From Shigella phage SFN6B: 43,036 bases of DNA. The notes beneath the pieces are model-generated. The model saw only the letters and a program-made list of their open reading frames with translations, had not been told where the DNA came from and ran no database searches. This document shows, in pieces, positions 1 through 20,909 of the stretch. Position 1 is the stretch's first letter. Each line of letters begins with the position of its first letter. The position numbers and the translations under genes were made by a program. The DNA lies in sequence record KY684082; one strand, given 5' to 3'.

Positions 1-14
1 CTCCCCCCCCCCCT
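1..14. repeat. Terminal homopolymer tract CTCCCCCCCCCCCC, also present at the right window end; putative terminal-repeat or assembly junction
   Basis: The window starts ct+c(11)+tg and ends cccct+c(11); the shared ~13-nt string sits at both extremities. Confidence 0.5.
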
Positions 15-245
15 GTAGTTGGGGGGCTTTTCCTTTTGTAGGTTAGTATTTATAAGCACTATTCCAGGTGCATATATGAAGTTATCTGCAAGTGGGTACA
101 AGAGAAGCGCCTGGAACATCACAAGGACTTCTCCCCTGCGCAGGTGTATACCTGAACTCGAAATTTGTTAGACTCACGCGAGGCCCTCCCTCACCCTCAA
201 CGCGCCCAATTGCCCCCATAGGGGGTGTCTAGCGTATAAATGAGG

Positions 246-256
246 GGGGGGGGGCC
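246..256. repeat. Poly-G tract (11 G) followed by GGCCGTCTAG-type short direct repeats
   Basis: Read directly: gagggggggggggccgtctagacgtctagatggccagctgtgggccgtctaggg. Confidence 0.6.
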
Positions 257-390
257 GTCTAGACGTCTAGATGGCCAGCTGTGGGCCGTCTAGGGCGGAC
301 CAGGAGGGCCGTAGAAGCTCGCTGCGCGGCCTAATGGCTATTGCTAGTGCTATCCTATGCCTATCGCTATAAGCTCCTTGTAGGGCCGCT

Positions 391-433
391 GGGAAGCTCT
401 GGGAGGCACTAGGGAGGCACTAGGGAGGCACTA
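391..433. repeat. Tandem repeat, 11-bp unit GGGAGGCACTA x3 plus one degenerate copy
   Basis: Read directly: gggaagctct gggaggcacta gggaggcacta gggaggcacta. Confidence 0.85.
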
Positions 434-482
434 AGTGGGCCGTGGGGACGCGCTCCGTCTTGCTTATTTTGTGCGCCTATTG

Positions 483-545
483 CGGGCTTCCATTGTGGGC
501 TTCCAGTGCCCGCATTGTGGGGCCATAGTGGGGGCCATAGTGGGC
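483..545. repeat. Cluster of short direct repeats (GGGCTTCCA x2, CATTGTGGG x2, GGCCATAGTGG x2)
   Basis: Read directly from the sequence; overlaps the probably spurious ORF 435..671. Confidence 0.75.
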
Positions 546-561
546 CGCCCAGTGCGCCGTG

Positions 562-590
562 GTGCTATCGCTAGTGCTATCGCTAGTGCT
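562..590. repeat. Tandem repeat, 12-bp unit GTGCTATCGCTA x2.4
   Basis: Read directly: gtgctatcgcta gtgctatcgcta gtgct; related GTGCTA(T/C)CCCTAG copies near 664-680 and 961-990. Confidence 0.8.
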
Positions 591-717
591 TTACATTGTG
601 CCGATTATATGCTACTCTGCGCGCTCCCCACTGAGGCGCACTTCCACTACCCACCACACGCCGTCACCTAGTGCTATCCCTTCACCCTTACTTTCATTCG
701 AAAGCTAATAAGAAATG

Positions 718-734
718 ATGTTACAGGAGTAGGA
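718..734 (+). promoter_or_regulatory. Candidate phage-RNAP promoter, copy 1 of exact 17-mer ATGTTACAGGAGTAGGA (left non-coding end)
   Basis: Exact 17-mer shared with 20183..20199 and 32788..32804; ends in ...GAGTA|GGAG, resembling the -1/+1 region of T7-family promoters. Confidence 0.4.
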
Positions 735-890
735 GGGTTTTAGGGCACTACATACATACTACTTACTACTACTCACTAGTATCCCCTAGTAATGCCCTAT
801 ATTACGACCGTAGGGAGTAAGCATTACCTACACAGTAACTGCATTGCTCCGTGTCCTTTCACTTCGTACGGACACTACGCACTGCTTTAT

Positions 891-940
891 GTAGTATTAG
901 ATAGTGTTAGGTAGTATTGGTTAGTATTGGTTAGTGGTGG
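891..940. repeat. Degenerate tandem repeat, ~10-bp unit (GTAGTATTAG / GGTTAGTATT) x5
   Basis: Read directly: gtagtattag atagtgttag gtagtattgg ttagtattgg ttagtggtgg. Confidence 0.75.
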
Positions 941-1201
941 CGAGCAGTGGCTACAGCTAGTAGCTGCATAGTGCTACCCCTAGTGCTATCCCTAGAATAG
1001 AAGCATTGGCTAAGTATTTGCCCCGCTTACCCCTTTTGCTCTCAGTGATAAAAGTTTAAAAAAAAGTGCTTGCTTCTTTTGGTTAGTTAGCGCTATAGTT
1101 CAATCACCGGGAGGCACTGAGGCGCTGAACGGGGTAGAGTCGGGAGACTCCACCGGATTAAAGCTAGATAGTGTGAAGGGTTAGATACTCGATAAAAAGA
1201 G

Positions 1202-1230
1202 TTGACACCGCGAAGAACATAGGCTAGATT
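1202..1230 (+). promoter_or_regulatory. Sigma70-like early promoter (TTGACA - 17 bp - TAGATT)
   Basis: Perfect -35 hexamer TTGACA, 17-bp spacer, -10 TAGATT (4/6); lies in the non-coding leader upstream of the first ORFs. Weaker candidates near 1070-1099 (TTGCTT-18-TATAGT) and 1274-1302. Confidence 0.5.
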
Positions 1231-1575
1231 GAATCCCGAAGTAAGCAGTTAGGTAGTACACAGAAACAAACGCTTGACAAGTTCAGATTCACCTAGTAAC
1301 TTAGATAGCGAACAACGTAGTAAGCTGATTTGCGGGGAGGCCCAGTACCTTGACTGGTACGATGACGACTGAGCCTATACAATCAGTGTAGTAAAGAAGT
1401 AACGTCAAGAGCTGAGACGACAAACGGCTGGGGCGCTGAGGCGCTGCCCCTTAAAAGAATAGCGTCGAGACCTGAGCCACAGGTTCCACGGTTGTGCAGT
1501 GGGTAACAAGGTGAAAGATTAGCGTCCAGCTAGATACTGCTAGGGCGTTAATCTTTGACTTTGATGGAGGACACA

Positions 1576-1791
1576 ATGAAATATCGTGAGAAGTTAGCCC
1601 AACAATTCGCCGGACTTGAGAAGTTATCTGGTCCGGAATTGAGAAAACGCCGGGACGCGTTGAATCGTGCCGGGTATATGCGGATGAAACAATCTGCTAC
1701 ATTCAGCACGAACGTACGCGGTAAGACCAAAACAAGGGGAAGTAGCAAGGCCCCGCAAGGCTGGTACACTGCCGGGCAGTTCGGACGCTAA
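1576..1791 (+). CDS. Hypothetical early protein (basic, ~71 aa)
   Basis: ORF track 1555..1791; in-frame ATG at 1576 with GGAGGA a few nt upstream; first ORF after the non-coding leader. Confidence 0.45.
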   Translation: MKYREKLAQQFAGLEKLSGPELRKRRDALNRAGYMRMKQSATFSTNVRGKTKTRGSSKAPQGWYTAGQFGR

Positions 1792-1797
1792 TTACAG

Positions 1798-1828
1798 CCT
1801 ATAGCATCCTACGGGGTGCTATGTGAAG
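1798..1828 (+). promoter_or_regulatory. Conserved inverted-repeat element, copy 1 (CCTATAGCATCC-tacg-GGGTGCTATGTGAAG)
   Basis: 9-bp stem with 4-nt loop; same motif family at 2646..2675 and 9606..9637; ~39 bp upstream of the gene starting at 1867. Confidence 0.5.
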
Positions 1829-1866
1829 TAATTCGATAAGTAAACAACCAATCAAAGAGGTGTATC

Positions 1867-2451
1867 ATGACTAATATGACTAATGCAACCAAAAAAGTAT
1901 TCAAATTAACCGCCGCCGGCAATATCCGTAAAGCACTGCGCGATGTAGTAGAAGCCAAGCGTAATATCACTATCAGCGCTCTGTTCCACGGCCTGATTAG
2001 TAGCAACGTTTCTTGGGCGACGGATATGCAGCGCAGTGATGCCGCTGACTTTGATATGGTGCTGCGTACACTGCTGCCCATCAAGTTCAACAAGGAATCT
2101 GGCAAGTACGAGTTCCACGCTAAAAAGTGCTATGCGTCGGCTGAGAAGTTGGGTATTGAGCTGGATACTATGCGTCTGGACTATAAACAAGCTGACAAGC
2201 AAGGCCGTGAAGAGATTGTTGCCAGCTTCTACAGCGCTTGTATGGCCCTGTACAACGCTGAAGCGGATAAGGTGAAGAATGATGCCTTAGATGCCGATGC
2301 CGTGCGTCTGCAAGCTCTGGGGCGCGTTAAAAACGCCATCAAGAAAGCTAAGGAAACTGGTGTAAGCGATTCCGATCTGGTGAGTATGCTCATCAGTCAG
2401 GGTGTTGATGTGCGTGCTGTACTGGATGCAACTTTGAAGGTGGCGGCATGA
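1867..2451 (+). CDS. Hypothetical early protein (194 aa)
   Basis: ORF track; ATG preceded by AAAGAGG; no recognisable catalytic motif. Confidence 0.7.
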   Translation: MTNMTNATKKVFKLTAAGNIRKALRDVVEAKRNITISALFHGLISSNVSWATDMQRSDAADFDMVLRTLLPIKFNKESGKYEFHAKKCYASAEKLGIELDTMRLDYKQADKQGREEIVASFYSACMALYNAEADKVKNDALDADAVRLQALGRVKNAIKKAKETGVSDSDLVSMLISQGVDVRAVLDATLKVAA

Positions 2452-2525
2452 GCATGGAACTTGTAGGACTCATTCTAGTGATTGCGCTACTGGTCATAGT
2501 AATAGCAGAGTGCAGACGCTTATGA
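2448..2525 (+). CDS. Putative 25-aa hydrophobic mini-protein (MSMELVGLILVIALLVIVIAECRRL)
   Basis: Not in ORF track (too short); ATG overlaps the upstream stop in an ATGA arrangement; almost entirely a single TM-like helix. Confidence 0.3.
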   Translation: MSMELVGLILVIALLVIVIAECRRL

Positions 2526-2645
2526 TTATCAAGTGCTGGGCCTTATGCCCAGCGGCCAACGATACCGACGCCTTTGACGTGCCAACCCGGGGGCGCCATA
2601 ACAAGTGGTGCTACGAAGGTTTAGGGGAGTACGTATAGTGTCAAG

Positions 2646-2675
2646 CCTATAGCGCCTTAGTGGGCGCTATGTGAA
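2646..2675 (+). promoter_or_regulatory. Conserved inverted-repeat element, copy 2 (CCTATAGCGCC-ttagtg-GGCGCTATGTGAA)
   Basis: Perfect 8-bp stem ATAGCGCC/GGCGCTAT; ~25 bp upstream of the ATG at 2700. Confidence 0.5.
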
Positions 2676-2699
2676 TGCCACTAATAAGTGAGGTTTCAA

Positions 2700-2921
2700 A
2701 TGAAAGCAAAGATAATCCATCCGGGGCACGTACTCTGGCCCGTGTGGTGCAACCAAGTGCACCCAGAGTATAATTACACTGTGATGATATTCTCTGACCT
2801 AGATACTGATCAGGAATTCCCTTTAGACCTCGTTGATACTTATACCGAAACGGCGGCGCGCACTCTGCTGGACGCCGTGAATCTAGGTGTTATTACCGAC
2901 TGGAAGCAACTTTATGGCTAG
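2700..2921 (+). CDS. Hypothetical early protein (73 aa)
   Basis: ORF track 2688..2921; ATG at 2700 has GAGG upstream. Confidence 0.5.
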   Translation: MKAKIIHPGHVLWPVWCNQVHPEYNYTVMIFSDLDTDQEFPLDLVDTYTETAARTLLDAVNLGVITDWKQLYG

Positions 2922-3102
2922 TAAGTACGGGAAGAATCCTGAAACGCTGCTGATGCGTAGGCAGCAACCAACGATCGAGGGACTGGCGCGGGAGTACAGC
3001 GCGAAGGCAGCACTGCGTCAGCACTATGAGAAACAAGCGAAGCGCCTGGGTATGACCCTGCGCGGTTACTGTCAACGTTTTAATGTACGAGGTGTAGTAT
3101 GA
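2914..3102 (+). CDS. Hypothetical early protein (62 aa)
   Basis: ORF track 2887..3102 trimmed to the first ATG after the upstream gene (MASKYGKN...). Confidence 0.45.
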   Translation: MASKYGKNPETLLMRRQQPTIEGLAREYSAKAALRQHYEKQAKRLGMTLRGYCQRFNVRGVV

Positions 3103-3296
3103 ATGAACTAGTTAAGTATGATTTATACAGACGCCGGAATGGGTTACTGTACCGGGTGTCACTGCATGGCGCACTGTACGGGCCCGCTGAGTTTTACGCC
3201 ACCGGTTGTTGGGTACAATCACACCTAACAATTTTTGGTGTAATAACAGGTAGTGCGAGCACGCTAGTGGCCCGCAACGTAGTATTCAAGGATTAA
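3099..3296 (+). CDS. Hypothetical early protein (65 aa)
   Basis: ORF track; ATGA overlap with the upstream gene. Confidence 0.45.
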   Translation: MNELVKYDLYRRRNGLLYRVSLHGALYGPAEFYATGCWVQSHLTIFGVITGSASTLVARNVVFKD

Positions 3297-3298
3297 AT

Positions 3299-3643
3299 AT
3301 GCTCACAGTAGACGAAACAGCGCTACTGTGTTGGCGCTTGCTAGAGACGCAAGGCAAGTGCGGCTGCAGTTGGGAAACATTCAAAGAGGTCCCTAATGAA
3401 CTCAAGCGAATCGTACCGGTCGAGCGTAGGCCCCTCCGAGTTCGTAAGCAGGATTCTACGGTGGTGCTCACCGCATACCGGGAGTATACAGAATCTGCCG
3501 CGCGGCAGTTGCAAGAGCACCTTGCATTCAATGTGGTTGCAGCGCTACGGCAGTATGGATATAGGGGAGCTTTTACGCGATTTAAAGCCGCAGTGCGAGC
3601 CTATTACAAGCAGCAACAACTCTCTGCGTGGTATGCACGCTGA
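3299..3643 (+). CDS. Hypothetical early protein (114 aa)
   Basis: ORF track; AAGGA Shine-Dalgarno upstream. Confidence 0.55.
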   Translation: MLTVDETALLCWRLLETQGKCGCSWETFKEVPNELKRIVPVERRPLRVRKQDSTVVLTAYREYTESAARQLQEHLAFNVVAALRQYGYRGAFTRFKAAVRAYYKQQQLSAWYAR

Positions 3644-3689
3644 ACTTTTAACGTATGATGAGATACTAGTAACACCGGAGACAAAGAAA

Positions 3690-5405
3690 ATGCAAGAGAC
3701 TAACAAAGTAAACGTAGATGCAAACGTACCTGCAAATGTACCTGCCTACGAGGGTTGGACCATCAAATTTCCAGAAGGGGCCAACGCTCTTCCGCTGAAG
3801 AAACAGATGTACTCTTCCGGGGATTACTGGTGCCAACTTCCCTACCTATCAACTCGAGGCCATGCGCGCGTGCAAAGTAACAAAACCCGTGCGCTTTTGA
3901 ATGGCATTTATATGTGGTCAAAGGTGCTGCCGGGATATATTGTAGCACTTGGCAACTTTACAGCTGCAGGAGAGGAGTTGAGTGTATATACTGGGCCGCT
4001 GGGAGCAGTTGATATTAGTGACACTCTCCTGCATAAGCTCCTTGACCGTGCAAGTACCTGCGACCGGGCATTCGGTTTATACAGCAGAACCTTCTATGAT
4101 GGCCCTGACGTAGTTACAGAGCGCGTAGTAGAGGCGGTGCAATACTTCACTGGATACAAGGTGCACAAACAGGCTATAGAGTTGTTCGAAGAGATTATGC
4201 TAGCACCTACGTACTCCCTCCGGGCCAAATACACTCGCGGCGCGTACAGTGAGCGTGATGGAGATTACTGGGCAGCAACCTTGCTTATGCAGTTGCACGG
4301 GTTCGTGGTGTCTAGGTTTGCAATCCCGCTGGGTTTTGGATTCCGAAACGGTGAGCCTGTAGTAATGCTGGGGCAGCCGCGACTACACAAAGATTATGCT
4401 GCAATTACCGAGTATCGCTGCGTGGAGATGCGCGTGGGTAAATGGCTTGCTAACTACTACGGTAGTGGGGTAGACTTCCGGGAATGTATTGAAGACCTCA
4501 AAGCTATGAATGTAGACCCAACCACGTATCTTTGTAAGACCGAAGAGGAGTGGTACAACGCATACGAGAAAGGCCCGCGTAGCTGCATGACCGGATACAA
4601 CTTCGAGTATAGCCCGGTGCGTGTATACGCTACGACGAGTCACGGCTTGCCGGATAATGGGCTGCGCTTGTTCATCCAGTATACCGGTGAACTTTTTGGC
4701 GACGACTTTAAAGTGCAAGCCCGCGCTATCGTTAACATCGAAACCAACGAATACGTCCGTGCATACGGAGATGCTGCGGACGCCATTCTACGTGCTAATG
4801 GGTATGAGCACGATACAGACTGCTTAGATGGCGCACTACTGGCACGCATTCCGCACCCAGAGAATGAAGGTGCCGTGCTTATGCCGTACTTAGACGGGAA
4901 TCAAGATGGCGTGGATGAAGAGGGGAATAATGCGTTCGTTATCTGCGACTGCTATGACTATGAAGCACAGGATGCTGACGGGTACATTTGGATTGATGAC
5001 GATCGCTGCGCTTGTACAGAGTGTGGGGAACGTTTCGACGAGGAGGACATGTACGTATCTTGTGACGGTGGTTATGTATGCTCGCACTGTATCGGTGATA
5101 CTTACGTACAGGTAGTGGGCCGCAGCGTAGTGTACCCATCATGGGATTGCTCATGGTCTGACTACCACGACTCTTGGGTACTTGACCAGGACGTAGCAGA
5201 TTGTGCTGTAGAGGGTACAGTGCATGATGAAGAGCCAATGGTGTGCGTACAAGGGTACAATGTTCTGAGTGTGCATGCCGAAGAGCACCCAGTGCACGGT
5301 ATGATTCTCACGGAGTATGCTGCGTCCGTATTGGATGAACCCTACCTCGGTAATGAAGAAGCCGAAGAAGACAAGGAAGCTAAAGCAGAACAGGAGGCAG
5401 CTTAA
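3690..5405 (+). CDS. Large early protein of unknown function (~571 aa) with C-terminal Cys-rich zinc-ribbon-like cluster and acidic tail
   Basis: ORF track 3396..5405; start moved to ATG 3690 (GGAG upstream; avoids overlap with 3299..3643); alternative ATG at 3633. Cys cluster CDCYDY...CACTECGERF...CDGGYVCSHC; C-terminus EEAEEDKEAKAEQEAA. Confidence 0.65.
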   Translation: MQETNKVNVDANVPANVPAYEGWTIKFPEGANALPLKKQMYSSGDYWCQLPYLSTRGHARVQSNKTRALLNGIYMWSKVLPGYIVALGNFTAAGEELSVYTGPLGAVDISDTLLHKLLDRASTCDRAFGLYSRTFYDGPDVVTERVVEAVQYFTGYKVHKQAIELFEEIMLAPTYSLRAKYTRGAYSERDGDYWAATLLMQLHGFVVSRFAIPLGFGFRNGEPVVMLGQPRLHKDYAAITEYRCVEMRVGKWLANYYGSGVDFRECIEDLKAMNVDPTTYLCKTEEEWYNAYEKGPRSCMTGYNFEYSPVRVYATTSHGLPDNGLRLFIQYTGELFGDDFKVQARAIVNIETNEYVRAYGDAADAILRANGYEHDTDCLDGALLARIPHPENEGAVLMPYLDGNQDGVDEEGNNAFVICDCYDYEAQDADGYIWIDDDRCACTECGERFDEEDMYVSCDGGYVCSHCIGDTYVQVVGRSVVYPSWDCSWSDYHDSWVLDQDVADCAVEGTVHDEEPMVCVQGYNVLSVHAEEHPVHGMILTEYAASVLDEPYLGNEEAEEDKEAKAEQEAA

Positions 5406-6439
5406 TGTATGGTGTTGACCTTAAACTACTGACAAAGATACTAACAACGCACCGACCTAGCTGGGGCAGTACCAAATGGTTTGAGCCGCTACTTAGTAGC
5501 GCTCTTGCTGGTGCAGAACACTACGTTAGGGACGCTCATGGTAACTACTTTGTGCTTATTGGTAACTCTGAACAGAGTGACGTAGCATTTACATCACACC
5601 TCGACACAGTGGCCCGGCCTGGTAGTGCTGCGCCAGACATTGCAATCACTAACAAGGGCATAATGTTCCTGCGGAATCCACAGGTGGCGGATTGTCTAGG
5701 TGCAGACTGCGGTGCTGGTATCTACCTGATGCTAGAGATGATTAGGCACGGTGTGCATGGGCGCTACTGCTTCTTCGTGGATGAGGAGGTAGGTTGTGAG
5801 GGCAGCAGAGCATCAGCCAAAGATGATACAGGGTTCTGGACTGGGGTCAAGGCGATGATTAGCTTCGACCGCCGGGGTGATGGTATCATTACGCATCAAC
5901 GGTACATGCGCTGCTGCTCTGATACGTTCGCAAAGGAACTAGCGGCCCGACTAGGACGAACGGAGGCGCACTTACAGAAGGGGGTATACACGGACTCCGC
6001 TGAGTTCGTAAGTATTATCCCAGAGTGCACTAACGTAGGCGTAGGGTACATGCACGAACATACACCAGACGAGGTGCTGGACTTAAACATCCTTGGTCAG
6101 GTACTGGAGCGTGTACTGCAAGCAGGCACATTCAAGCACCTACCGATTGAACGGGATCCAAAGGTAGTGGAACCGGATGCGTGGTTATCTGCCTCTGCGT
6201 ATCCTTTTGATATGTCACTAGATGTTCCCTATGCGGAAGACCCGCATTTACTTGCAGCATTCAAGGAGGTGTCACAGCTTTCTAAGCAGCAACTGATTAG
6301 TTGGGTATTGGATAACCCAGCAAGGGCGGCGGAGTACATCATGGTGTTCTCCGATTATGGCTTCAAAGAGGAACTGATTGAACTTGGCACCCGAGTTGTA
6401 GAGGACTGGGGTGGATACGAGAATATTGTGGAGGGTTGA
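5405..6439 (+). CDS. Putative MH-clan (M20/M28/M42-like) zinc metallopeptidase
   Basis: Ordered motifs matching the co-catalytic zinc peptidase pattern: SHLDTV (H-x-D), LGADCGAG (bridging Asp), FFVDEEVGCEGS (Glu-Glu), later Asp and His (MHEHT). Motif-level reading only. Confidence 0.5.
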   Translation: MYGVDLKLLTKILTTHRPSWGSTKWFEPLLSSALAGAEHYVRDAHGNYFVLIGNSEQSDVAFTSHLDTVARPGSAAPDIAITNKGIMFLRNPQVADCLGADCGAGIYLMLEMIRHGVHGRYCFFVDEEVGCEGSRASAKDDTGFWTGVKAMISFDRRGDGIITHQRYMRCCSDTFAKELAARLGRTEAHLQKGVYTDSAEFVSIIPECTNVGVGYMHEHTPDEVLDLNILGQVLERVLQAGTFKHLPIERDPKVVEPDAWLSASAYPFDMSLDVPYAEDPHLLAAFKEVSQLSKQQLISWVLDNPARAAEYIMVFSDYGFKEELIELGTRVVEDWGGYENIVEG

Positions 6440-6441
6440 TT

Positions 6442-6912
6442 ATGTCTAAGTTTAAAGTTGGTGATAAAGTTGTCCGCAAATCACCCGACGACAGTTCATC
6501 GTTTAAGAAGCACCAAGGGGATTTTGATTACTACACAGTTACAGATATGTCCCCAAGCGGCCACTGGCTGCAGTTGGACAACTTTACTATCGACGATGAC
6601 TATTACCCGTGGTGTGCAACTAACTTCGAGCTGTACCAAGAGCTGGACGACGAGCTGCCGCCTGCACCAACCTCAGTACTCTATTACCATAGCACTGCGG
6701 ATGCATATAACTTGCAGCATATGATCGTGCAACCACATTGGGAGTTAGAGGGACATCTCAGTATCGCTATCGTGAAGAGCGGTAAAAAGTTCGATCCCCT
6801 GGCTTACGGTGATGCATTATCCCTCAACCTGGAACCCGATGCAGCCTTGCAGTTGGCACATGACCTATGCCGCATGGCTATGGATATTAAACGTAAGGAG
6901 AAAGCACAGTGA
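6442..6912 (+). CDS. Hypothetical protein (156 aa)
   Basis: ORF track 6436..6912; ATG at 6442 preceded by GGAGGG. Confidence 0.6.
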   Translation: MSKFKVGDKVVRKSPDDSSSFKKHQGDFDYYTVTDMSPSGHWLQLDNFTIDDDYYPWCATNFELYQELDDELPPAPTSVLYYHSTADAYNLQHMIVQPHWELEGHLSIAIVKSGKKFDPLAYGDALSLNLEPDAALQLAHDLCRMAMDIKRKEKAQ

Positions 6913-7370
6913 AGTATGAGTACAACCCGGATACCGGGGAGATACTGCGCTATGGGAAACCGGTAGGGTCTAAGGACTCCTCCGGGTACCTGGTGGTGTG
7001 GGTGGATGGTAAGTGCTGGCGTGCCCACCGTCTGGCCTACCACCTACAAGGCTTGCCGGTACCTAGACAAGTGGACCACATTAATGGAATCAAAGATGAT
7101 AACCGGTGGGTCAACTTACGTGCAGCCACTAACTCTCAGAACCAGTACAACCGCAAAGGTTGTGCTGCATCAGGAAACCTAAAGGGCGCATACTACAACA
7201 AGGCTATGCGCAACTGGTACTCCCTAATTCGTGTAGGTGGTAAGCGTAAATACTTAGGCTCTTACCGTTCGGAAGCTGAGGCCCACGCAGCCTATGTAAA
7301 GGCCTCTCAACAAATGCACGAGGGGTTTGATGTATGGACGAGCCGTGGCTTAGAGCCTGCAAGCGCCTAG
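6909..7370 (+). CDS. HNH homing endonuclease (HNH plus AP2-like DNA-binding region), paralog 1
   Basis: VDHINGIKDDNRWVNLRAATNSQN HNH core; GTG start with AAGGAG upstream; paralogs at 13318, 24732 and 35743. Confidence 0.8.
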   Translation: MKYEYNPDTGEILRYGKPVGSKDSSGYLVVWVDGKCWRAHRLAYHLQGLPVPRQVDHINGIKDDNRWVNLRAATNSQNQYNRKGCAASGNLKGAYYNKAMRNWYSLIRVGGKRKYLGSYRSEAEAHAAYVKASQQMHEGFDVWTSRGLEPASA

Positions 7371-8122
7371 CGATAGGGCAATCGAGTAGGTTCCGCTGCT
7401 GCGGCAAGACTCCTGCAGCGGTAATCTACAATAAACCTGACACCTGGAGCATGTACTGCTTTAGGTGTCACAAGACTGTTAATGAGCGCAAGCAGTACCA
7501 GCGCATACAGTTACAGGAAGAGCCGAGGGTGCAGCCCTCTGCACCTGCAGATGCAATTTGCATTAGCCAAGCGCCTGCGGAAACACAGAATTTTATTTAC
7601 GGATTCCTTGCTACAAAAGGAATCATGCCTGAAATGGTGGGGGATGCAGAATGGAGCAAAGAGAAACAGCGGATACTATTCCGTGCCGGGGGTGCTGTAC
7701 TGGGCCGCGCTGTTCATGCCCGACAGCAACCGAAGTGGGTAATGTACGGCCAGCCAATAGCTTTCGCTGTCGCGGCACCTGCCGTAGCACCGGCTGTAGC
7801 TGCGGCCGCACCTCTAAAGGTCGTGCTCACCGAGGACTTACTCTCAGCCCGGAAGATACAGCACGCAGTTACGAGCTACAGTGCGTTGAACGTGCAGGCT
7901 ATAGCTATGCTGGGTACACGCTTGCCCACGCAGCTAAGGGCCTGGCTGATTCAGAATCGCCCGGAAGTGATTCTGATGCTGGATAATGACCCGGCAGGGC
8001 ATGCTGGGGTAGTAGCAGCACGCAAAGCACTGCGCCCGTTCATGCAGTGCCGAGAACATTACTTCGCTGCGGATCCTAAGGACGCAGAAATCAAAGAGAT
8101 ACTGGAGGCGCTTAATGCTTAA
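7334..8122 (+). CDS. DNA primase (zinc-binding domain plus TOPRIM)
   Basis: CCGKT...CFRCHK zinc-finger pattern; TOPRIM-like VVLTEDLLSARK and VILMLDNDPAGHAG; sits immediately upstream of the helicase. Confidence 0.8.
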   Translation: MDEPWLRACKRLAIGQSSRFRCCGKTPAAVIYNKPDTWSMYCFRCHKTVNERKQYQRIQLQEEPRVQPSAPADAICISQAPAETQNFIYGFLATKGIMPEMVGDAEWSKEKQRILFRAGGAVLGRAVHARQQPKWVMYGQPIAFAVAAPAVAPAVAAAAPLKVVLTEDLLSARKIQHAVTSYSALNVQAIAMLGTRLPTQLRAWLIQNRPEVILMLDNDPAGHAGVVAARKALRPFMQCREHYFAADPKDAEIKEILEALNA

Positions 8123-8321
8123 GAACAAATACAGGGTAGTGCAGGACAACTACGCAGGATTTGAGGCGCAGGTTAAGTTCTGGTGGTTTCCGGTGCGCTG
8201 GTGGCAACTGTGCAGATCTGGGCGTGGGGTGGGTACTAACACGTACCCCAATCTTCATGAGGCAGAGAGCCTGTGTCGAGTACATGCCAGAAAGAGTACC
8301 ATCTACAAAGTGGAGGTTTAA
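8115..8321 (+). CDS. Hypothetical small protein (68 aa) between primase and helicase
   Basis: ORF track; exactly fills the gap between the two genes. Confidence 0.4.
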   Translation: MLKNKYRVVQDNYAGFEAQVKFWWFPVRWWQLCRSGRGVGTNTYPNLHEAESLCRVHARKSTIYKVEV

Positions 8322-9602
8322 TTGGACCTAATAGTAGTCAAGGCAATGTGCACACAGAAGGTCTGGAACCGACTGCGAGAGCAGATACCCAAGTCTATGC
8401 TAGCGCCAGATACATCAAACCTACTGGACTGGGTGGGGCTGTACTGGAACACGTACCCGGAGCACCAGGAGGTGCAGTGGGACGCGATGCAAAGCATGCT
8501 CAATCTCCGGGCCGGACACTTGTCCCGTGAAGAGCGGGTGATTATGGACGAGCTTATGCGGGGAGTACAAGCCGTGCCACAGGATTCTGTGGTGGGGATT
8601 GTTCAGACCCTGAATGAGTTAGCATACAGTGGGGAGGTTGCTGCACTTACACAGCGCTACCAAGACGGTGAGGAGGTTGATTACCTGCTGGAGATGAAGC
8701 ACCTCCAGCGCAAGTACGGTGATGGTGCTGCTGTTCATGATTCGCTACTGGAATGGGAGAGCGGAAGTGTTGATGAGATACTTGCCGCGACTGATGAAAG
8801 TGGCGGTCTTAAGCTGGGTGTGTTTGAGCAACTGTCGAGTAGCATTCGTGGGCTTCGCGGAGGTGATTGCATCGCCGTTGCTGCCCCTGTTGATTCTGGT
8901 AAAACTAGTCTACTCGCTGCTATTGCCGTGGACTTTGCTAAGCAGATGCAGCAACAACCCGAAGTATATGGGGACCGTCCGATTCTGTGGTTGGTTAACG
9001 AAGGCCCGGCGACGCGTACAGTGCCGAGGGTATATCAAGCGGCGCTGCATTGGACTTTGGCTGAGATTAAGGACAGGCACAGTAGGCAAGAGTTTGTGCC
9101 AGCCTATCTGGAGAAAGTAGGCAGGGCTGACCGCATCCGTATCAAGGCAGCGCACTCCCTTACGATGGCCCAAATCTCTACACTCATGGAGGAGATGCGT
9201 CCGGCGGTAATCATCATAGATATGGTGGCTAACATCCGTGGTGGTACTATGGAGAGCGAACACCAGAACCTAGAGGCGAAGTGGCAGGAGCTGCGTATCC
9301 TGGGGTGTGAGAATGACTGTGCTGTTATCGGTACTATGCAGCTTTCGCTTGAAGGTTACAACCTGCTGTTCCCGCCGCTCACGGCGATGAAGCAGAGTAA
9401 GATTGGTGTACAAGGTGCTTTGGATTTGGCGATTATGATGGGGTGCTTAGACAGGAACGAGCAGCCGCACATGCAAAACATTCGTGGTATCAGTACACCC
9501 AAGAACAAGATGGCGCTATCAGGCAAGGAATCGCTACTGCAATTCGAGGTAGCATTCGACCCAGGTAGATGCCGCTTTAACGAAGGGCAGATTAACAAGT
9601 GA
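8322..9602 (+). CDS. DnaB-like replicative DNA helicase
   Basis: Walker A AAPVDSGKTSLL and Walker B AVIIIDMV; TTG start 5 nt after GGAGG. Confidence 0.85.
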   Translation: MDLIVVKAMCTQKVWNRLREQIPKSMLAPDTSNLLDWVGLYWNTYPEHQEVQWDAMQSMLNLRAGHLSREERVIMDELMRGVQAVPQDSVVGIVQTLNELAYSGEVAALTQRYQDGEEVDYLLEMKHLQRKYGDGAAVHDSLLEWESGSVDEILAATDESGGLKLGVFEQLSSSIRGLRGGDCIAVAAPVDSGKTSLLAAIAVDFAKQMQQQPEVYGDRPILWLVNEGPATRTVPRVYQAALHWTLAEIKDRHSRQEFVPAYLEKVGRADRIRIKAAHSLTMAQISTLMEEMRPAVIIIDMVANIRGGTMESEHQNLEAKWQELRILGCENDCAVIGTMQLSLEGYNLLFPPLTAMKQSKIGVQGALDLAIMMGCLDRNEQPHMQNIRGISTPKNKMALSGKESLLQFEVAFDPGRCRFNEGQINK

Positions 9603-9605
9603 CTT

Positions 9606-9637
9606 CCCTAGCGCCTTCCTAGAGGGCGCTATGTAGG
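9606..9637 (+). promoter_or_regulatory. Conserved inverted-repeat element, copy 3 (CCCTAGCGCC-ttcctagag-GGCGCTATGTAGG)
   Basis: Same motif family as 1798 and 2646; ~27 bp upstream of the DNA polymerase ATG. Confidence 0.5.
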
Positions 9638-9663
9638 TACATGGTATGGGAGGTATAAGTAGT

Positions 9664-12027
9664 ATGACAACCAGTATAATGCACATCGATTTGGAGACAG
9701 AGAACCATGAATATTATGGCTCTAAAGCAAGCCCATACTGCCCTGACAACTATGTTGTTGAGTCAGCATGGCGTATCGACACAACACAAGCTGACGGTAC
9801 TACCACTGTTGGCGCGACTCAATCAGTGCGCTTCAATTCAAGAGCTGATTTCTTGGCGGGAAACAGTGCAGCAGAAGGCTGCCGGTGGTTTCATATTCCA
9901 GAGGATTGTTGGCTTATTGTTGCACACAATGCCGCCTATGAAATCTCCTGGTTCCTCACGTATCAGAGACAGCAGTTCGAAGCCTTCCTCAAGCGCGGCG
10001 GCAGGGTGTTCTGCACGATGCACGGAGAATACATCGCCTCGGACTTTCAGAGCATGTATCCGTCACTGGACGAGACGGCTCCTAAGTACGGCGGTACGCA
10101 CAAAGTAGATGGGGTTAAGATTCTCTGGGAGCAAGGTGTATTAACCTCCCAGATTGATCCTATGCTATTGCATGACTACCTAGTGAATGGGGATATACCG
10201 AACACGGCCCTGTGCTTCTACGGCCAGTGCGCTACGTTCGCCCAGCGTAATCAGATGCAGTACGTGTGGGAGCGTATGGATGCGTTGCTGGCATGGGCAT
10301 ACTGTGAATGGTTTGGACTGTTCGTGAATATGCCTATTGCTCGCAAGAACCAAGAGGAGCAGGAGCAGCGTATCCTGGAGATTAAACAGGAACTGCAGCA
10401 GTACATACCGAAGGACTTGCCGGAGACCCTGGATTTCAACTTCGGTTCAGACTTTCATATGTCCGCACTGGTGTACGGCGGGCCTATCAAGTACCGCAAG
10501 AAGGTTCCCTATGACCCGCCGCAGTATGTTAAAGACGATTACTACCGCCTATTAGATGGTGGGAAGGTTCTGTGCAGGAACGTGGGTGGAGATGACTGGG
10601 ACCAGAAGGTAGTTAAGTATGCCTCAGGGAAGAACAAGGGCCTTCCCAAAGTATTCCGCCTTGATACAGAGGAGGAGAAACTCAAATGGGAGGACGACCT
10701 ATACTTCTGCCCGGGCCTGGTTAACATCCAAGAACTTCCAGAGGTGCTCCGAGAGAAGTATGCTGAGCGTGGGGAATTCAGGCAAGCACGGTGCCTGCAG
10801 GATGGGACACCAATCTACAGCACCAGCACAGATGCAATGGAAGCCCTAGCACGTAATGGATTTGAGTTCTGTCGATTGGTGAACGAACTAGGCGCTCTGG
10901 AGAAGGACACAGGAACCTACTACCTGCGAACAGAGTACAACGAAGATGGGTCAGTTAAAAAGACCTCGGGCATGCTTCAGTACGTCATACCTCAGAACTC
11001 CGATGACTCAGGTATTATTCACCACCGCCTTAATACTTGTGCTACTGTTACCGGGCGACTATCTGGCTCTAACCCAAACCTCCAGAATCTCCCGCGAGAT
11101 GGAACTAGTAAAGTAAAACAGATGTTCACTTCCCGTTTCGGTGAATCCGGTCGTATCACTGAGGTTGACTACTCCGCCCTGGAAGTGGTTATGTCTTGTG
11201 TTCACACCGGAGACAGGAAGCTGTTGGGTTTGCTGCAGAACGGCACGGATATGCACTGCTACCGCCTAGCGTTCAAGGAGGGCAAAACCTACGAAGAGAT
11301 GTATGACCTCTGCCACAACGCCAATGGGCCGGACTACAAATACTGGAAGCAGCAGCGTACGGACATTAAGCCTCCGAGCTTTGCTGCACAGTACGGGGCT
11401 ACGGCTAAAGGGATTGCGTTTGCTACAGGCTGTACAGTGGAGTATGCGCAGTCGTTCCTGGATAACGAGGCGAAGCTGTTCCCAGACACCATCGGATTCC
11501 GGGCGGTAGTGAAGGAGGAGGTAGAGCGCACCGGGGCGGCTGGGCGCATTTACCGGGAGCAGGCGGATGATGGCAGCTACCGCATCTACCGCATTGGCAC
11601 CTGGACCAGCCCAGCTGGTGCACGGTACAGCTTCCGCCAGAAGGAGCAGTGGAAGGAAGTAGTCCCTGGCCAGCGCAAACAAAAGGTGATGGACTACAAA
11701 GAAACTGAGATGGCTAACTACTGGTGTCAGGGTGAGGCATTCTTCCTGATGGCGGTAGCAGCTGGTATGGTTCTGCGTGCAATGCTGGCGCGTGATTGGT
11801 TCGATAATCAGGTGTGTTTGATTACGAACGTACACGATGCATTGTATCTGGATAGTGCTAATCCGGAAGTAGGCAGAGAAGCGAGCCTGTTGGTTAAGCA
11901 GTGTATGGAGGATGCGCCTAAGCGTATTCACCAGCTCTGGCCTAACTACGGCATCATTGGCGAAGTCCCGTTCCCAGCGGAAGCTGAAATGGGTACAAGC
12001 ATGTACAGTAAGGAGAAAGTAGAATGA
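9664..12027 (+). CDS. DNA polymerase, family A (T7 gp5-like)
   Basis: Exo motif HIDLETE; pol motif A DYSALEVV, motif B KPPSFAAQYG, motif C NVHDALYLD; track start 9646, ATG 9664 preferred because of GGGAGG upstream. Confidence 0.9.
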   Translation: MTTSIMHIDLETENHEYYGSKASPYCPDNYVVESAWRIDTTQADGTTTVGATQSVRFNSRADFLAGNSAAEGCRWFHIPEDCWLIVAHNAAYEISWFLTYQRQQFEAFLKRGGRVFCTMHGEYIASDFQSMYPSLDETAPKYGGTHKVDGVKILWEQGVLTSQIDPMLLHDYLVNGDIPNTALCFYGQCATFAQRNQMQYVWERMDALLAWAYCEWFGLFVNMPIARKNQEEQEQRILEIKQELQQYIPKDLPETLDFNFGSDFHMSALVYGGPIKYRKKVPYDPPQYVKDDYYRLLDGGKVLCRNVGGDDWDQKVVKYASGKNKGLPKVFRLDTEEEKLKWEDDLYFCPGLVNIQELPEVLREKYAERGEFRQARCLQDGTPIYSTSTDAMEALARNGFEFCRLVNELGALEKDTGTYYLRTEYNEDGSVKKTSGMLQYVIPQNSDDSGIIHHRLNTCATVTGRLSGSNPNLQNLPRDGTSKVKQMFTSRFGESGRITEVDYSALEVVMSCVHTGDRKLLGLLQNGTDMHCYRLAFKEGKTYEEMYDLCHNANGPDYKYWKQQRTDIKPPSFAAQYGATAKGIAFATGCTVEYAQSFLDNEAKLFPDTIGFRAVVKEEVERTGAAGRIYREQADDGSYRIYRIGTWTSPAGARYSFRQKEQWKEVVPGQRKQKVMDYKETEMANYWCQGEAFFLMAVAAGMVLRAMLARDWFDNQVCLITNVHDALYLDSANPEVGREASLLVKQCMEDAPKRIHQLWPNYGIIGEVPFPAEAEMGTSMYSKEKVE

Positions 12028-12245
12028 CTATTAAACCGGGTAGTATTGTGGAGATACTAGGACTTGGGCCGGAACCCTTAGAGCCTAGACATCGTGATTA
12101 CTTTGCACCAGGCACACAGCATCGTGTGATATCTTATGATCCTGAACTCTGGGAGGTGGAATTAATCAATCCAGACAACAACTCAGAGAAGCCTGGGGAT
12201 GGTATTACCTTCTTCTCTGGGGAGTACAAACTTATAGCGGAGTGA
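12024..12245 (+). CDS. Hypothetical protein (73 aa)
   Basis: ORF track; ATGA overlap with the DNA polymerase stop; AGGAG upstream. Confidence 0.55.
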   Translation: MTIKPGSIVEILGLGPEPLEPRHRDYFAPGTQHRVISYDPELWEVELINPDNNSEKPGDGITFFSGEYKLIAE

Positions 12246-12407
12246 TGATAGGTGTACCCTCGGGTGGTGTAGGGGGTTAGGGTAACATGAGAATTAGCCA
12301 GGGTCAAGTAGATAATTAAATAAAATTATTTGTTGACTCTGGCTTGATTCTGTGATTTACCGAGAATTAATGTGATACGAGTAGGAACAACATAAGAGAG
12401 GCAAACC

Positions 12408-13388
12408 TTGGCTAAAATTAGTTTGATTAACCTGTTCAGCAAAGACCAGCACGAGGAAGTGCTGAGTTATCATAAAGACAACACGGCGGCAGCTGCAGCC
12501 TACACAGCTATGACGGATGGGAAATACCCAGTGTCCCGCCAGCTTGTACGCTACTGGCGCAGCATCTTTATGGATAATAATGGTAGCAAGGCAAAGGCTA
12601 ATAATGCTTTGATGCAAGCCCGCAAACTAATCCAGCCCTCCCCAACGGATGACATTGGGGATACGTTTGTACCGGAAACCTGTCGACGTATTCTCGTTAT
12701 CGGGGACCTGCACGAACCGTACACACACCCGGACGCGTATGACTTTTTATGCACTGTGAGGGATGAGTACTGCCCAGACATTGTGGTGCAGATAGGCGAT
12801 GAGACAGATGGACACGCTATTAGCTTCCATGATAGCAGTCCGGAGTTAGACAGCGCTGGAGTGGAATTAGAGAAGGCCAAGCTCGGTCTGGAGAGGCTTC
12901 ATGCTCTGTTCCCTAACATGCTCCTGTGCGACTCTAACCATGGCTCCCTTGTATACCGTAGAGCCAAAGCTCATGGACTCCCTGTACAGTTCATTAAGAA
13001 GTATCGGGACATCCTGTTCCCAGAGCACGGAGCGCCGGGGTGGAGTTGGGGTGATGCTTGGGATTTAAATACTCCGATGGGTACTGTGCGATTTCAACAT
13101 CAAGTATCTGGGGACCTTCTGCTCAACGCAGCTCATGAACGTAAGTCCATGGTAATTGGACACTTCCATGGGAAGTTAGATATACAGTATGCGGCGAGCA
13201 GCACTGCTTTGTACTTTGGTGCGCACTGCGGTTGTTTAATCGACAATAAGAGTCTGGCATTTGCTTATGGTAAGTTGTCAAGAAGCAAGCCGATTCTAGG
13301 GTGTATGGTGATTACAGATGGATGCCCACAAATCATCCCCATGCTATTGGACGACACCGGCCGGTGGTGTTCTAGAGTACAACCCTGA
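12408..13388 (+). CDS. Calcineurin-like metallophosphoesterase (putative nuclease or phosphatase)
   Basis: MPP signature blocks GDLHEP, GDETDGH, DSNHG, GHFHG; TTG start after GAGAGG. Confidence 0.7.
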   Translation: MAKISLINLFSKDQHEEVLSYHKDNTAAAAAYTAMTDGKYPVSRQLVRYWRSIFMDNNGSKAKANNALMQARKLIQPSPTDDIGDTFVPETCRRILVIGDLHEPYTHPDAYDFLCTVRDEYCPDIVVQIGDETDGHAISFHDSSPELDSAGVELEKAKLGLERLHALFPNMLLCDSNHGSLVYRRAKAHGLPVQFIKKYRDILFPEHGAPGWSWGDAWDLNTPMGTVRFQHQVSGDLLLNAAHERKSMVIGHFHGKLDIQYAASSTALYFGAHCGCLIDNKSLAFAYGKLSRSKPILGCMVITDGCPQIIPMLLDDTGRWCSRVQP

Positions 13389-13827
13389 TACCGGGGAGTT
13401 CACATGGGTTAAAGTTGTTAGTAACCGTGCCAAGTTGGGAAGTACTGCTGGGCACGTAAGACCTGATGGGTACTTGGTATTGCCGTGCGGAACCCGTGCT
13501 AATGTTGCAGCGTGTATGTTGTTGGGCCTAGATGTTCCTGATGGATATGTGGTGGACCACATTAACAGGGACACCCTGGATAACCGCGCGTGCAATCTTA
13601 GGGTTGTGTCAAAGAAGGTTAATGCACACAACACGGGGCTCCGGGCCACCAACAAAACAGGTGCTCGCGGAGTCTCTTGGGATTCTAGCAGAGGCAAGTA
13701 CCGGGCCGCTCTGATGGTGGACGGAAAGCAATACAGCAGGCGCTTTGACAGCTTAGAAGAGGCCTCAGAGTGGTACCACAGTGTGGCCGACAAACACGGG
13801 GTTAGGCAATACCAGCAACCTGCATAG
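13318..13827 (+). CDS. HNH homing endonuclease, paralog 2
   Basis: YNPDTGEF... then VDHINRDTLDNRACNLRVV HNH core and AP2-like GVSWDSSRGKYRA; overlaps the 3' end of the metallophosphoesterase gene by ~70 nt; start uncertain. Confidence 0.75.
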   Translation: MDAHKSSPCYWTTPAGGVLEYNPDTGEFTWVKVVSNRAKLGSTAGHVRPDGYLVLPCGTRANVAACMLLGLDVPDGYVVDHINRDTLDNRACNLRVVSKKVNAHNTGLRATNKTGARGVSWDSSRGKYRAALMVDGKQYSRRFDSLEEASEWYHSVADKHGVRQYQQPA

Positions 13828-13896
13828 ATGTTCTTAAACCGTTAAGCCCTGCATCTGCACATAAATTTTATTTAAACTAAACGAGGACATAATTAT

Positions 13897-14721
13897 ATGA
13901 CTATGAATGCACTGGATACTCTGAACTCCCTGGTAGCTGCTGCGATTGAAACGCAAGATGTTGATATGACGGAGACCGCCCAGGGTGGGGCATATGAGGA
14001 CGTACTGCTGCCGAAGGGTGAATACTATGGTTACTTCACTGAGTACGTGGAAATCGGTAAGCGCCTCCCGACTAAGGGTGGTAAGCCTACTGGTAAGCCT
14101 GCAGCGGCAAACGTGCGTATCGGGGTTGTGGTGTACGGTCCGAACGGTGAGGTGAAGCGTATCCGTCCGTATCCGATGACTATCAGCAACTTTGAGCGCG
14201 CGGGCTTCAAGAAGTTCTTCGACAAGCTCAACTACGATGGCAGCATTAAGCACGCCGCACAGCGACTGGGACAGGCGTTTGTGTTCCCAGTGGATGAGCA
14301 CACCAGTGCAGCAGGTAAGAAGTCCAACATCGTAGACCTCGCGGCAATCCGTCCGATTCCGAAATTCGACCCGAATACCGGTGAGCCGATTAAAATGCCT
14401 GAGCTGGATGCTTCCGAGATTAAGCTATTCTTGTGGAACAACCCGACCAAGGAAACCTGGGATAGCTTATATATTGAGGGGACCAAGGACGACGGTAAGA
14501 GCAAGAACTGGATTCAGGAGGATATGTATAAGGCAGTGGACTTCCCAGGCAGTGCTCTGGATATTCTGCTGAACGCTAGCTCAGTTCCTAGTCCGGCAGC
14601 TATGCAGACCCCAGCAGCCCCAGCTGCTCCTGCTGCTCCAGCTACACCAATAGCTCCGGCTGCACCAGTGGCTCCAGCGGCCCCTGTAGCACCAGCAGCG
14701 CCTGCTGCACCTCAAGCATAA
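13897..14721 (+). CDS. Hypothetical protein with C-terminal Pro/Ala-rich repeat (274 aa)
   Basis: ORF track; C-terminus PAAPAAPAAPATPIAPAAPVAPAAPVAPAAPAAPQA encoded by a degenerate 9-nt repeat. Confidence 0.65.
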   Translation: MTMNALDTLNSLVAAAIETQDVDMTETAQGGAYEDVLLPKGEYYGYFTEYVEIGKRLPTKGGKPTGKPAAANVRIGVVVYGPNGEVKRIRPYPMTISNFERAGFKKFFDKLNYDGSIKHAAQRLGQAFVFPVDEHTSAAGKKSNIVDLAAIRPIPKFDPNTGEPIKMPELDASEIKLFLWNNPTKETWDSLYIEGTKDDGKSKNWIQEDMYKAVDFPGSALDILLNASSVPSPAAMQTPAAPAAPAAPATPIAPAAPVAPAAPVAPAAPAAPQA

Positions 14722-14744
14722 GCAACCATACTACTAACTAATAC

Positions 14745-14761
14745 GGCCCCGCCCAGGGGCC
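14745..14761 (+). promoter_or_regulatory. GC-rich hairpin (GGCCCC-gccca-GGGGCC), possible terminator or processing site
   Basis: 6-bp perfect stem directly downstream of the stop at 14721; no clean U-tract. Confidence 0.35.
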
Positions 14762-14778
14762 TTAGAGAGAGGGTTTAG

Positions 14779-15057
14779 GTGAATATAATCACATGGGTTA
14801 AGGAGCGTTACGTCGTATTTCTACTGTTACGCGCTGAGCACTTGCAAACGCGGGCAGACGACTATAGACGAGCAGCCTACCTTTACGCACGTAGGGCAAA
14901 CCTAATAGGCAACAAGGTTAGTGTACACCGTTACCACTTGAATCACCAGTGTGCCAAGTCCAGTAGACGTGCATACACGTTGGGTGCGAAAGCTGCTGCC
15001 ACTGAAGTTAAAGCGCACAACTTCATTTATAAACATAAGCTTAAGGGGTTTGATTGA
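14779..15057 (+). CDS. Hypothetical basic protein (92 aa)
   Basis: ORF track; GTG start after GAGGG. Confidence 0.45.
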   Translation: MNIITWVKERYVVFLLLRAEHLQTRADDYRRAAYLYARRANLIGNKVSVHRYHLNHQCAKSSRRAYTLGAKAAATEVKAHNFIYKHKLKGFD

Positions 15058-15437
15058 TGGATAAAGTATTGGATGCATATAAGAATCTGGCTATTACGGT
15101 TGGTGCTGCAGTGTATGATGCAGCGGCGTGCGGTATACACGATATTAGCCTGGACAACATCTATGATGCCCTAGACGAACTGGCCGCCTTGTACGGTATG
15201 GATCTAGAGTTAGCAGCCACTGCCTTCAAGGAGCACAACGACCTGGCGGCACATGCCGACAAGCTGAAGGGGGATGATCTAGCGGTTATCCGTGTGGTGG
15301 GCACGCTCAGCGTTGGTCTGGCGGAGATTGGCTCCTGCATCTACGACGTAGACCAGAGCCTGCGTACTCCGGAAGTAATTGGGGACATGCTGGGTACTGT
15401 ACTGGTGCTGTCTGAGCTGGAGGGTAGTGATGCGTAA
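15057..15437 (+). CDS. Hypothetical strongly acidic protein (~126 aa)
   Basis: ORF track 15054..15437; second codon is ATG; very Asp/Glu-rich with few Lys/Arg. Confidence 0.6.
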   Translation: MDKVLDAYKNLAITVGAAVYDAAACGIHDISLDNIYDALDELAALYGMDLELAATAFKEHNDLAAHADKLKGDDLAVIRVVGTLSVGLAEIGSCIYDVDQSLRTPEVIGDMLGTVLVLSELEGSDA

Positions 15438-15591
15438 CTTCTTTGCTAAAGCCTTTTACTTCCTGTTAGTAGCCCCTCTAGTACCAGTAGCCTTCCTGTG
15501 CTGGGTATTTGAGAAGATAGAAAACAGTAAAGCACTTATCGCATGGGAATCCTGGGCGCGTAAGCTAGCCAAGAAGGTTACGGGGGTCTGA
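15430..15591 (+). CDS. Small membrane protein (53 aa)
   Basis: ORF track 15379..15591 trimmed to ATG 15430 (GGAGGG upstream); hydrophobic FYFLLVAPLVPVAFLCWVF. Confidence 0.45.
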   Translation: MRNFFAKAFYFLLVAPLVPVAFLCWVFEKIENSKALIAWESWARKLAKKVTGV

Positions 15592-16559: not shown

Positions 16560-16713
16560 GTTATACTACGAGGGGAAACATGATGAACTTGAAACTATTC
16601 TGGATGCGCTGCGTGAACGAGCACCCAAAACACATCGAAGAACGGTTGAGCGTTTGGATTCTATCATTCACGACAATGCTATGTTGGATTTAGTTGGGGA
16701 GATTGAATTATGA
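16516..16713 (+). CDS. Hypothetical small protein (65 aa)
   Basis: ORF track 16447..16713 trimmed to the ATG downstream of the exonuclease stop region. Confidence 0.4.
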   Translation: MAKMSAKEMSLRAIELYYEGKHDELETILDALRERAPKTHRRTVERLDSIIHDNAMLDLVGEIEL

Positions 16714-16913
16714 AATTGAACGTTGAGGCACCACGCCAAAAGAACAGAGAGTGTGTAACATGCGACCCCTGTCCCTTTTCGTACATGTGGGCCGTTAGTA
16801 GCCCTAGCGAAACTTACTACTGGTTCTTCTGGGCGCGCCCTACTAAGAAGCAACTACGCAGGTTGCAGCGCACCTACCGCAGAATCTTGGTAGATGGGGA
16901 TTGTATTGCATGA
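16710..16913 (+). CDS. Hypothetical small protein (67 aa)
   Basis: ORF track; ATGA overlap with the upstream gene. Confidence 0.45.
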   Translation: MKLNVEAPRQKNRECVTCDPCPFSYMWAVSSPSETYYWFFWARPTKKQLRRLQRTYRRILVDGDCIA

Positions 16914-17332: not shown

Positions 17333-17565
17333 GCGATGCAGTAAATTCGCCTAAACACTACCAATTCTTTCCAGACTTGGAAGCTATTTCTGTGATTGCC
17401 CGCAGCATGACCCGGGAACAATTCTATGGGTACTGCCTGGGAAATCGGCTCAAGTACAGACTCCGTGCTGGTAACAAGGATAAGCTGGAGCAGGATATTG
17501 CTAAATCTGACAAGTACTTAGAGCTGTATGAGCAGCATAAGGGGGAGTGTATTGACACCGAGTGA
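17329..17565 (+). CDS. DUF3310-like small protein
   Basis: SPKHY...GNRLKYRLRAGNK resembles the DUF3310 signature as recalled from phage proteins. Confidence 0.5.
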   Translation: MSDAVNSPKHYQFFPDLEAISVIARSMTREQFYGYCLGNRLKYRLRAGNKDKLEQDIAKSDKYLELYEQHKGECIDTE

Positions 17566-20175: not shown

Positions 20176-20182
20176 AAATTTA

Positions 20183-20900: not shown

Positions 20901-20909
20901 GGAGGAAGC

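Follow-up and report, generated by a model that had tools for sequence, protein, structure and literature searches.

Shared 13-nucleotide ends in the genome record of Shigella phage SFN6B and a predicted direct terminal repeat at positions 189-455

The genome record of Shigella phage SFN6B (KY684082) begins and ends with the same C-rich string, and this raises the question of whether its ends are the physical termini of the virion DNA, portions of a terminal repeat, or a product of the way in which the sequence was assembled and opened. In this report the window is the entire stretch of 43,036 nucleotides held in that record. It begins with CTCCCCCCCCCCCTGTAGTT and ends with ...TTTTAACCAAAGCCCCTCCCCCCCCCCC, and the longest exact match between a prefix and a suffix is the 13-nt string CTCCCCCCCCCCC, which lies on the plus strand at both 1-13 and 43024-43036, with C11 at 3-13 and again at 43026-43036. 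A preliminary description had recognized the common C-rich string, and the exact 13-nt overlap bears this out; it gave the end string, CCCCTCCCCCCCCCCC, correctly, but its 14-nt start string contained one C too many. The C run that it placed at 3-14 stops at 13, since the window starts with CT, 11 C residues and T, the last being base 14. The 13-nt identity is real rather than fortuitous, because a prefix and suffix of this length would coincide by chance with a probability of approximately 1.6e-8 given the base composition of the window, and a 43-kb sequence should contain approximately 0.003 C11 runs per strand, whereas two are observed, one at each end of the record. The only G/C homopolymers of at least 7 nt in the window are these two C11 runs, one G11 run, and a single G7 run at 42823-42829 within the tailspike gene.

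A megablast search assigns the window to the genus Drulisvirus (KP34-like Autographiviridae, subfamily Slopekvirinae). In this search the Escherichia phages PSK2, ZH5, Minorna, and AV102 and the Klebsiella phage KPV811 were the closest; they matched 80-89% of a 24.5-kb query at approximately 90-93% identity. The window has the appearance of a complete Drulisvirus genome record of approximately 43 kb, belonging to the E. coli/Shigella clade of the genus within the T7 supergroup. The last gene of the genome in the list of open reading frames encodes an Sf6-type tailspike of 598 amino acids (41218-43014, plus strand, with the TAA stop codon at 43012-43014). Its C-terminal 322 residues (277-598) are 93% identical to the tailspike of Shigella phage Moonfish, and it is 39% identical to Sf6 gp14 (both by tblastn); homologues that are 84-90% identical carry the Pfam domains Tail_spike_N, Pect-lyase, and Tailspike_C. 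The tailspike of the Bucovirus Buco (the same phage as HRP29, with locus tags of the form HRP29_gpNN) is only 47% identical. The neighboring open reading frame (203 amino acids, 40607-41218) probably encodes an endolysin, judging from gene order. Exact-protein look-ups with the tailspike and the 203-residue product recorded no contig for either, and an Rfam scan of the whole window yielded no family at the gathering score.

Here, we describe a comparative analysis of the record ends and of the sequences adjoining them. We present evidence that the duplicated 13-mer is a by-product of the linearization of a circular, repeat-collapsed assembly and not a biological repeat. The features that underlie it are of ordinary, known kinds, namely a terminator into which a homopolymer is inserted and a predicted terminal repeat of the Drulisvirus type.

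The tailspike terminator and the junction of the record ends

When the two ends of the window are joined and one copy of the 13-mer is dropped, the resulting sequence reads TAA-CC-AAAGCCCC-T-C11-T-GTAGTT-GGGGGG-CTTTTCCTTTT. This has the organization of a rho-independent terminator that begins 3 nt past the stop codon of the last gene, and the left part of the motif lies at the 3' end of the window while its right part lies at the 5' end. The 5' half (43017-43036, plus strand) consists of the conserved arm AAAGCCCC at 43017-43024 followed by the T-C11 of an insertion. The 3' half (14-37, plus strand) consists of T at 14, the conserved loop GTAGTT at 15-20, the arm GGGGGG at 21-26, and the T-rich tail CTTTTCCTTTT at 27-37. 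A scan with a terminator consensus produced a call at 9-26 followed by the T-rich tail CTTTTCCTTT. Taken together, the G+C-rich hairpin, the run of T residues, and the location after the last gene lead us to predict a rho-independent terminator here.

Homologous elements follow the tailspike stop codon in four independent phage contexts besides the window. The sequence is CAAAGCCCCC-GTAGTT-GGGGGCTTTTTT in Moonfish and CAAAGCCCCCC-GTAGTT-GGGGGCTTCC in a contig from Logan (L017), and it is CAAAGCCCC-GTAGTT-GTGGAGG... in two further contexts represented by T7-like contigs (L018/L019 and L020). The arm CAAAGCCCC(C)(C) is found in all four, and GTAGTT-GGGGGCTT is retained in Moonfish and L017. The tailspike terminators of Moonfish and of the metagenomic contigs therefore resemble that of the window in having the arm AAAGCCCC and the loop GTAGTT immediately after the stop codon, and Moonfish and L017 additionally share with it the 3' arm GGGGG(G)CTT and a T-rich tail. 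Since these homologous terminators carry the motif unbroken, the two record ends abut in the phage DNA; by this comparison they are contiguous in the real molecule, and one copy of the 13-mer must be removed in order to rebuild it. The record thus combines an exact identity of prefix and suffix with a joined sequence that is contiguous in independent genomes, and the preliminary suggestion of an assembly artefact or a circularized assembly agrees with both of these results. Exact and gapped searches with the junction sequence in IMG/VR, JGI metagenomes, and GTDB genomes gave no match, and none of the collections covered yielded another assembly of SFN6B.

What sets the terminator of the window apart from its four homologues is an insertion of 13 nt, T-C11-T, which separates the 5' arm from the loop. 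The Moonfish hairpin has a 10-bp stem with a folding energy of -17.4 kcal/mol (z = -4.6). In the window, unlike these homologues, the insertion either enlarges the loop to 17 nt, with a stem formed by AAAGCCCCUC and GGGGGGCUUU (-14.6 kcal/mol), or shifts the pairing to a C6/G6 stem (-13.3 kcal/mol). The folding energy of the window hairpin is no better than that of shuffled sequences, owing to the C and G runs.

These properties of the insertion bear on the possibility that the C run is absent from phage DNA, such that the true hairpin would be Moonfish-like, AAAGCCCCC-GTAGTT-GGGGGG, and T-C11-T would have arisen through sequencing or assembly at the contig ends. The insertion is unique among the five homologous terminators and falls exactly at the ends of the contig, as this explanation would have it. 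Homopolymers of such length are miscalled on several sequencing platforms, and the earlier warning that they are prone to error was right. However, the two ends present the run on the same strand and with matching flanks (CCCCT-C11 and CT-C11-TGTAG), as contiguous real sequence would. The C run of the homologues itself varies from C4 to C6, in keeping with slippage, and real, conserved runs of G9 to G14 located nearby in relatives also break assemblies. We consider it unlikely that the entire run is artificial; the T-C11-T sequence could nevertheless be in part a consensus error. One specific source of error, poly-G tails generated by the dark cycles of two-color chemistry, was rejected, as such tails would give a record that starts in C and finishes in G, and what is observed is C at both ends, on one strand and with matching flanks.

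A second reading takes the 13-mer for a real, if short, redundancy of the termini or for a cohesive end, with the record ends as physical termini. The 13-mer is an exact direct repeat at the two ends, and 13 nt lies within the size range of cohesive ends, which are short single-stranded overhangs made by terminase at a site conserved in the phage backbone. Nonetheless, every Drulisvirus with annotated ends has a repeat of 192-279 bp beginning with CCTCACCCT, and the ends of one of them, fHe-Kpn01, are blunt. The landmarks of Drulisvirus ends are fully conserved in the window, at 189-455, and the junction site is conserved in no Drulisvirus in an alignment of eight phages. The junction lies, moreover, in a terminator hairpin that the tailspike cassette carries along into phages of unrelated families; because the hairpin travels in this manner, it is no packaging signal of this phage backbone. 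Termini at the 13-mer therefore seem hardly credible to us.

The cassette itself comprises the C-terminal part of the tailspike gene together with the terminator (approximately 42044-43036 plus 14-30) and is 84-95% identical across phage families. It is found in Moonfish (Schitoviridae), in T7-like metagenomic contigs that have a Phage_T7_tail domain at the N terminus, and in a contig where two tailspike genes are present. Inside the terminator hairpin, the homology of the cassette stops.

A predicted direct terminal repeat and the spacer to its left

The segment that does resemble a terminal repeat lies farther to the right. Positions 189-455 (267 bp, plus strand) align end to end with the annotated direct terminal repeats (DTRs) of five Drulisvirus genomes, those of KpV475 (243 bp), KpV48 (192 bp), SAA231 (268 bp), Dlv622 (279 bp), and fHe-Kpn01 (222 bp). 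The blunt termini of fHe-Kpn01 have been mapped by PhageTerm, restriction analysis, fragment ligation, and Sanger sequencing (PMC7291057). All five annotated DTRs start with CCTCACCCT and end with GCGCTC, which correspond to window positions 189 and 455, respectively; in two of these records the annotation extends for two additional bases, TG, past GCGCTC. The palindrome CCCCCATAGGGGG, found at nt 25-37 of each of the five DTRs and at nt 26-38 in T7, is present at 213-225 (plus strand), where it is unique in the window and serves as a fixed landmark, 25 nt from the predicted left end. The 189-455 segment thus possesses each of the Drulisvirus DTR landmarks, that is, the start, the palindrome at nt 25-37, and the end. 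In the alignment of eight phages, conservation amounts to 87-94% at 141-240 and 84% at 441-460, and its maxima coincide with both of the predicted repeat boundaries.

On the basis of these alignments we predict that the left end of the virion DNA is at 189 and that its right end is formed by a second copy of the repeat ending at 455, and we infer that the physical ends of SFN6B virion DNA correspond to 189/455. Like the other Drulisvirus DTRs, the predicted repeat has a G-rich tract, short tandem arrays, and a conserved unique block upstream of its right copy. In contrast to them, it is present in a single copy in the record, as revealed by self-BLAST, and the 13-mer is located outside it. The left end of T7 (Teseptimavirus, with a 160-bp DTR) and the sequence at window position 189 both begin with YCTCAC (TCTCAC in T7), and the identical CCCCCATAGGGGG is preceded by 24 nt at the predicted end of the SFN6B genome and by 25 nt at that of T7; the T7 repeat is otherwise unrelated in sequence to 189-455. 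Perfect or near-perfect tandem arrays, with units of 8-13 nt in 2-4 copies, occur at 256-271, 401-433, 479-544, 562-590, and 747-995, inside the predicted repeat and just to the right of it, and such arrays are typical of the terminal regions of T7-group phages.

The sequence between the window start and the predicted repeat has a different character. Positions 14-188 align to the unique spacer that separates the tailspike gene from the right DTR in KpV475, SAA231, fHe-Kpn01, AV102, and others. In KpV475, SAA231, Dlv622, KpV48, and fHe-Kpn01 the matching spacer is found at the right end only and outside the repeats. Positions 1-40 show no conservation in the per-column comparison of eight phages and are aligned to no Drulisvirus.

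These alignments weigh on a third reading, in which the segment from C11 to G11 (approximately 250 bp, 1-254) is the terminal repeat and the record contains one copy of it plus the start of a second. The segment is similar in size to Drulisvirus repeats, and the two runs are complementary homopolymers. However, 14-188 is homologous to a spacer that lies outside the repeats of five relatives, 1-40 is without conservation in any Drulisvirus, and the G11 run (244-254, plus strand; previously placed at 246-256) is 55 nt inside the aligned repeat, counted from the predicted left end, and marks no repeat boundary. When the first 600 nt were compared with the window by self-BLAST, the far end was seen to share nothing beyond the 13-mer with this region; a T7-type DTR would put some 150-800 bp of identical sequence at each end of the linear genome. 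We therefore regard a repeat delimited by the two runs as scarcely tenable and favor the repeat at 189-455. The preliminary description had proposed a full terminal repeat followed by the first 13 nt or so of a second copy, yet the 13-mer is outside the repeat, in the terminator that follows the tailspike gene. Its use of the C11 and G11 runs as brackets is superseded by the homology of 189-455 to five annotated DTRs; the size that it proposed, approximately 240 bp, came close to 267 bp, although the placement was wrong.

Two features can be distinguished within the spacer. The first is a 3' remnant of an HNH endonuclease gene at 75-155 on the plus strand, consisting of 26 codons plus TGA; in a tblastn comparison with the SAA231 HNH protein, 19 of 25 residues are identical (E = 2e-11). 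Annotations of HNH genes in relatives underlie the matches to 75-188. Several Klebsiella relatives, among them SAA231, BUCT631, and BUCT86, have a full HNH gene between the tailspike gene and the right repeat. The 5' part of this gene is absent from the window, where the remnant adjoins the incoming cassette of tailspike and terminator.

The second feature is a conserved block of approximately 48 nt directly to the left of the DTR (141-188, plus strand). Its mean per-column conservation is 87-94% across the eight phages. In relatives it occurs at the right end only, and the annotated repeats of KpV475, SAA231, Dlv622, KpV48, and fHe-Kpn01 do not include it. It is a candidate recognition sequence for packaging or for cutting at the genome end. 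The block contains GACTCAC, the core of the T7 promoter. We considered a role as a general promoter for the phage RNA polymerase and found it unsupported: the 16-mer around this core occurs in a single copy, with only one relative at three mismatches in the window. The block is also recognizable in the Bucovirus Buco.

Probable opening of a circular assembly at a homopolymer

The position of the junction relative to the predicted repeat suggests how the record came to end where it does. The C11 run is 176 nt upstream of the repeat, and the cut falls 176-188 nt before the repeat begins, within sequence confined to the right end in relatives with mapped ends, which is at odds with the earlier proposal of a circularized assembly cut inside the repeat. 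In all likelihood, the record represents a circularly joined assembly with a collapsed repeat that was opened in the C run of the terminator, leaving an overlap of 13 nt. In this scheme, the two DTR copies of the virion DNA would have collapsed to one during assembly, giving rise to a circular map. The circle would then have been opened in the C homopolymer, on the loop side of the terminator hairpin downstream of the tailspike gene, so that CT + C11 remained in duplicate, once at each end. If the run varied in length among reads, it may have been the sole branch point in an otherwise closed assembly graph; the reason for the opening at the C run, like the exact length of that run, is a matter of interpretation. 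The order in the virion would be tailspike gene, terminator with its C run, HNH remnant, conserved block, and right DTR. The virion DNA would correspond to 189..43036 + 14..455, or approximately 43,290 bp (43,036 - 13 + 267), with blunt-ended repeats of 267 bp, and the repeat would be regenerated at packaging through the cutting of concatemers, as in T7-type phages. In T7, packaging entails the cleavage of concatemers and the formation of a second copy of the repeat.

Parallels to this scheme are found in the records of related phages. The ZH5 record opens with the initial bases of the repeat's G run and has an end overlap of 127 nt; the PSK2 record starts with G10 of the same run; the EC22.5-2 record is a raw SPAdes node that stops in G11 of the run, with an overlap of 77 nt; and Buco (MK562503) has an end overlap of 127 nt. 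AV102, in which the run is only G9, is contiguous through it. From the cuts at the repeat G run in the ZH5, PSK2, and EC22.5-2 records it follows that assemblies in this clade repeatedly open at G:C homopolymers of approximately 10 nt or more. The SFN6B record resembles those of ZH5, Buco, and EC22.5-2 in having an exact identity of prefix and suffix in a circularly permuted record with a collapsed DTR, and it resembles those of ZH5, PSK2, and EC22.5-2 in being cut exactly at a G:C homopolymer of at least 10 nt. It differs from the latter three in that its cut is in the C run of the tailspike terminator, whereas theirs is in the G run of the DTR. Its overlap of 13 nt corresponds to no standard assembler k, in contrast to the 127 nt of ZH5 and Buco and the 77 nt of EC22.5-2. 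The 'complete genomes' of ZH5, Buco, and EC22.5-2 hold the left-end motif internally and hence are circular permutations rather than end-defined genomes.

For curation, these results indicate that 13 nt should be removed from the record, its start moved to 189, and a second 267-bp repeat added before it is used in comparative or packaging analyses. More generally, contig ends and short end repeats in this clade tend to fall at G:C homopolymers and are not to be taken as genome termini. The 13-mer itself implies no new biology.

The homopolymers of the terminal region might also be viewed as real, slippage-prone functional elements of the Drulisviruses of the E. coli/Shigella clade, a reading that embraces the C11 of the terminator, the G9-G13 of the DTR, and the G14 and G11 of the E. 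coli phage phiHAO78-1. They could, for example, tune the extent to which transcription continues past the last terminator and enters the packaging region, or take part in end processing. We judge such a function to be improbable. The position of the G run in the repeat is constant while its length varies, from G9 in AV102 and phiHAO78-1, through G10 in KpV475 and SAA231 and at least G10 in PSK2 (whose record begins within the run), to G11-12 in EC22.5-2 and G13 in ZH5 and Minorna; in fHe-Kpn01, Dlv622, and KpV48 the run is interrupted. The record of the related phage phiHAO78-1 (PP197160) has G14 at 63-76, G9 at 289-297, and G11 at 2216-2226, all in the terminal or early non-coding region and one of them in the spacer that separates the repeat from the tailspike gene.
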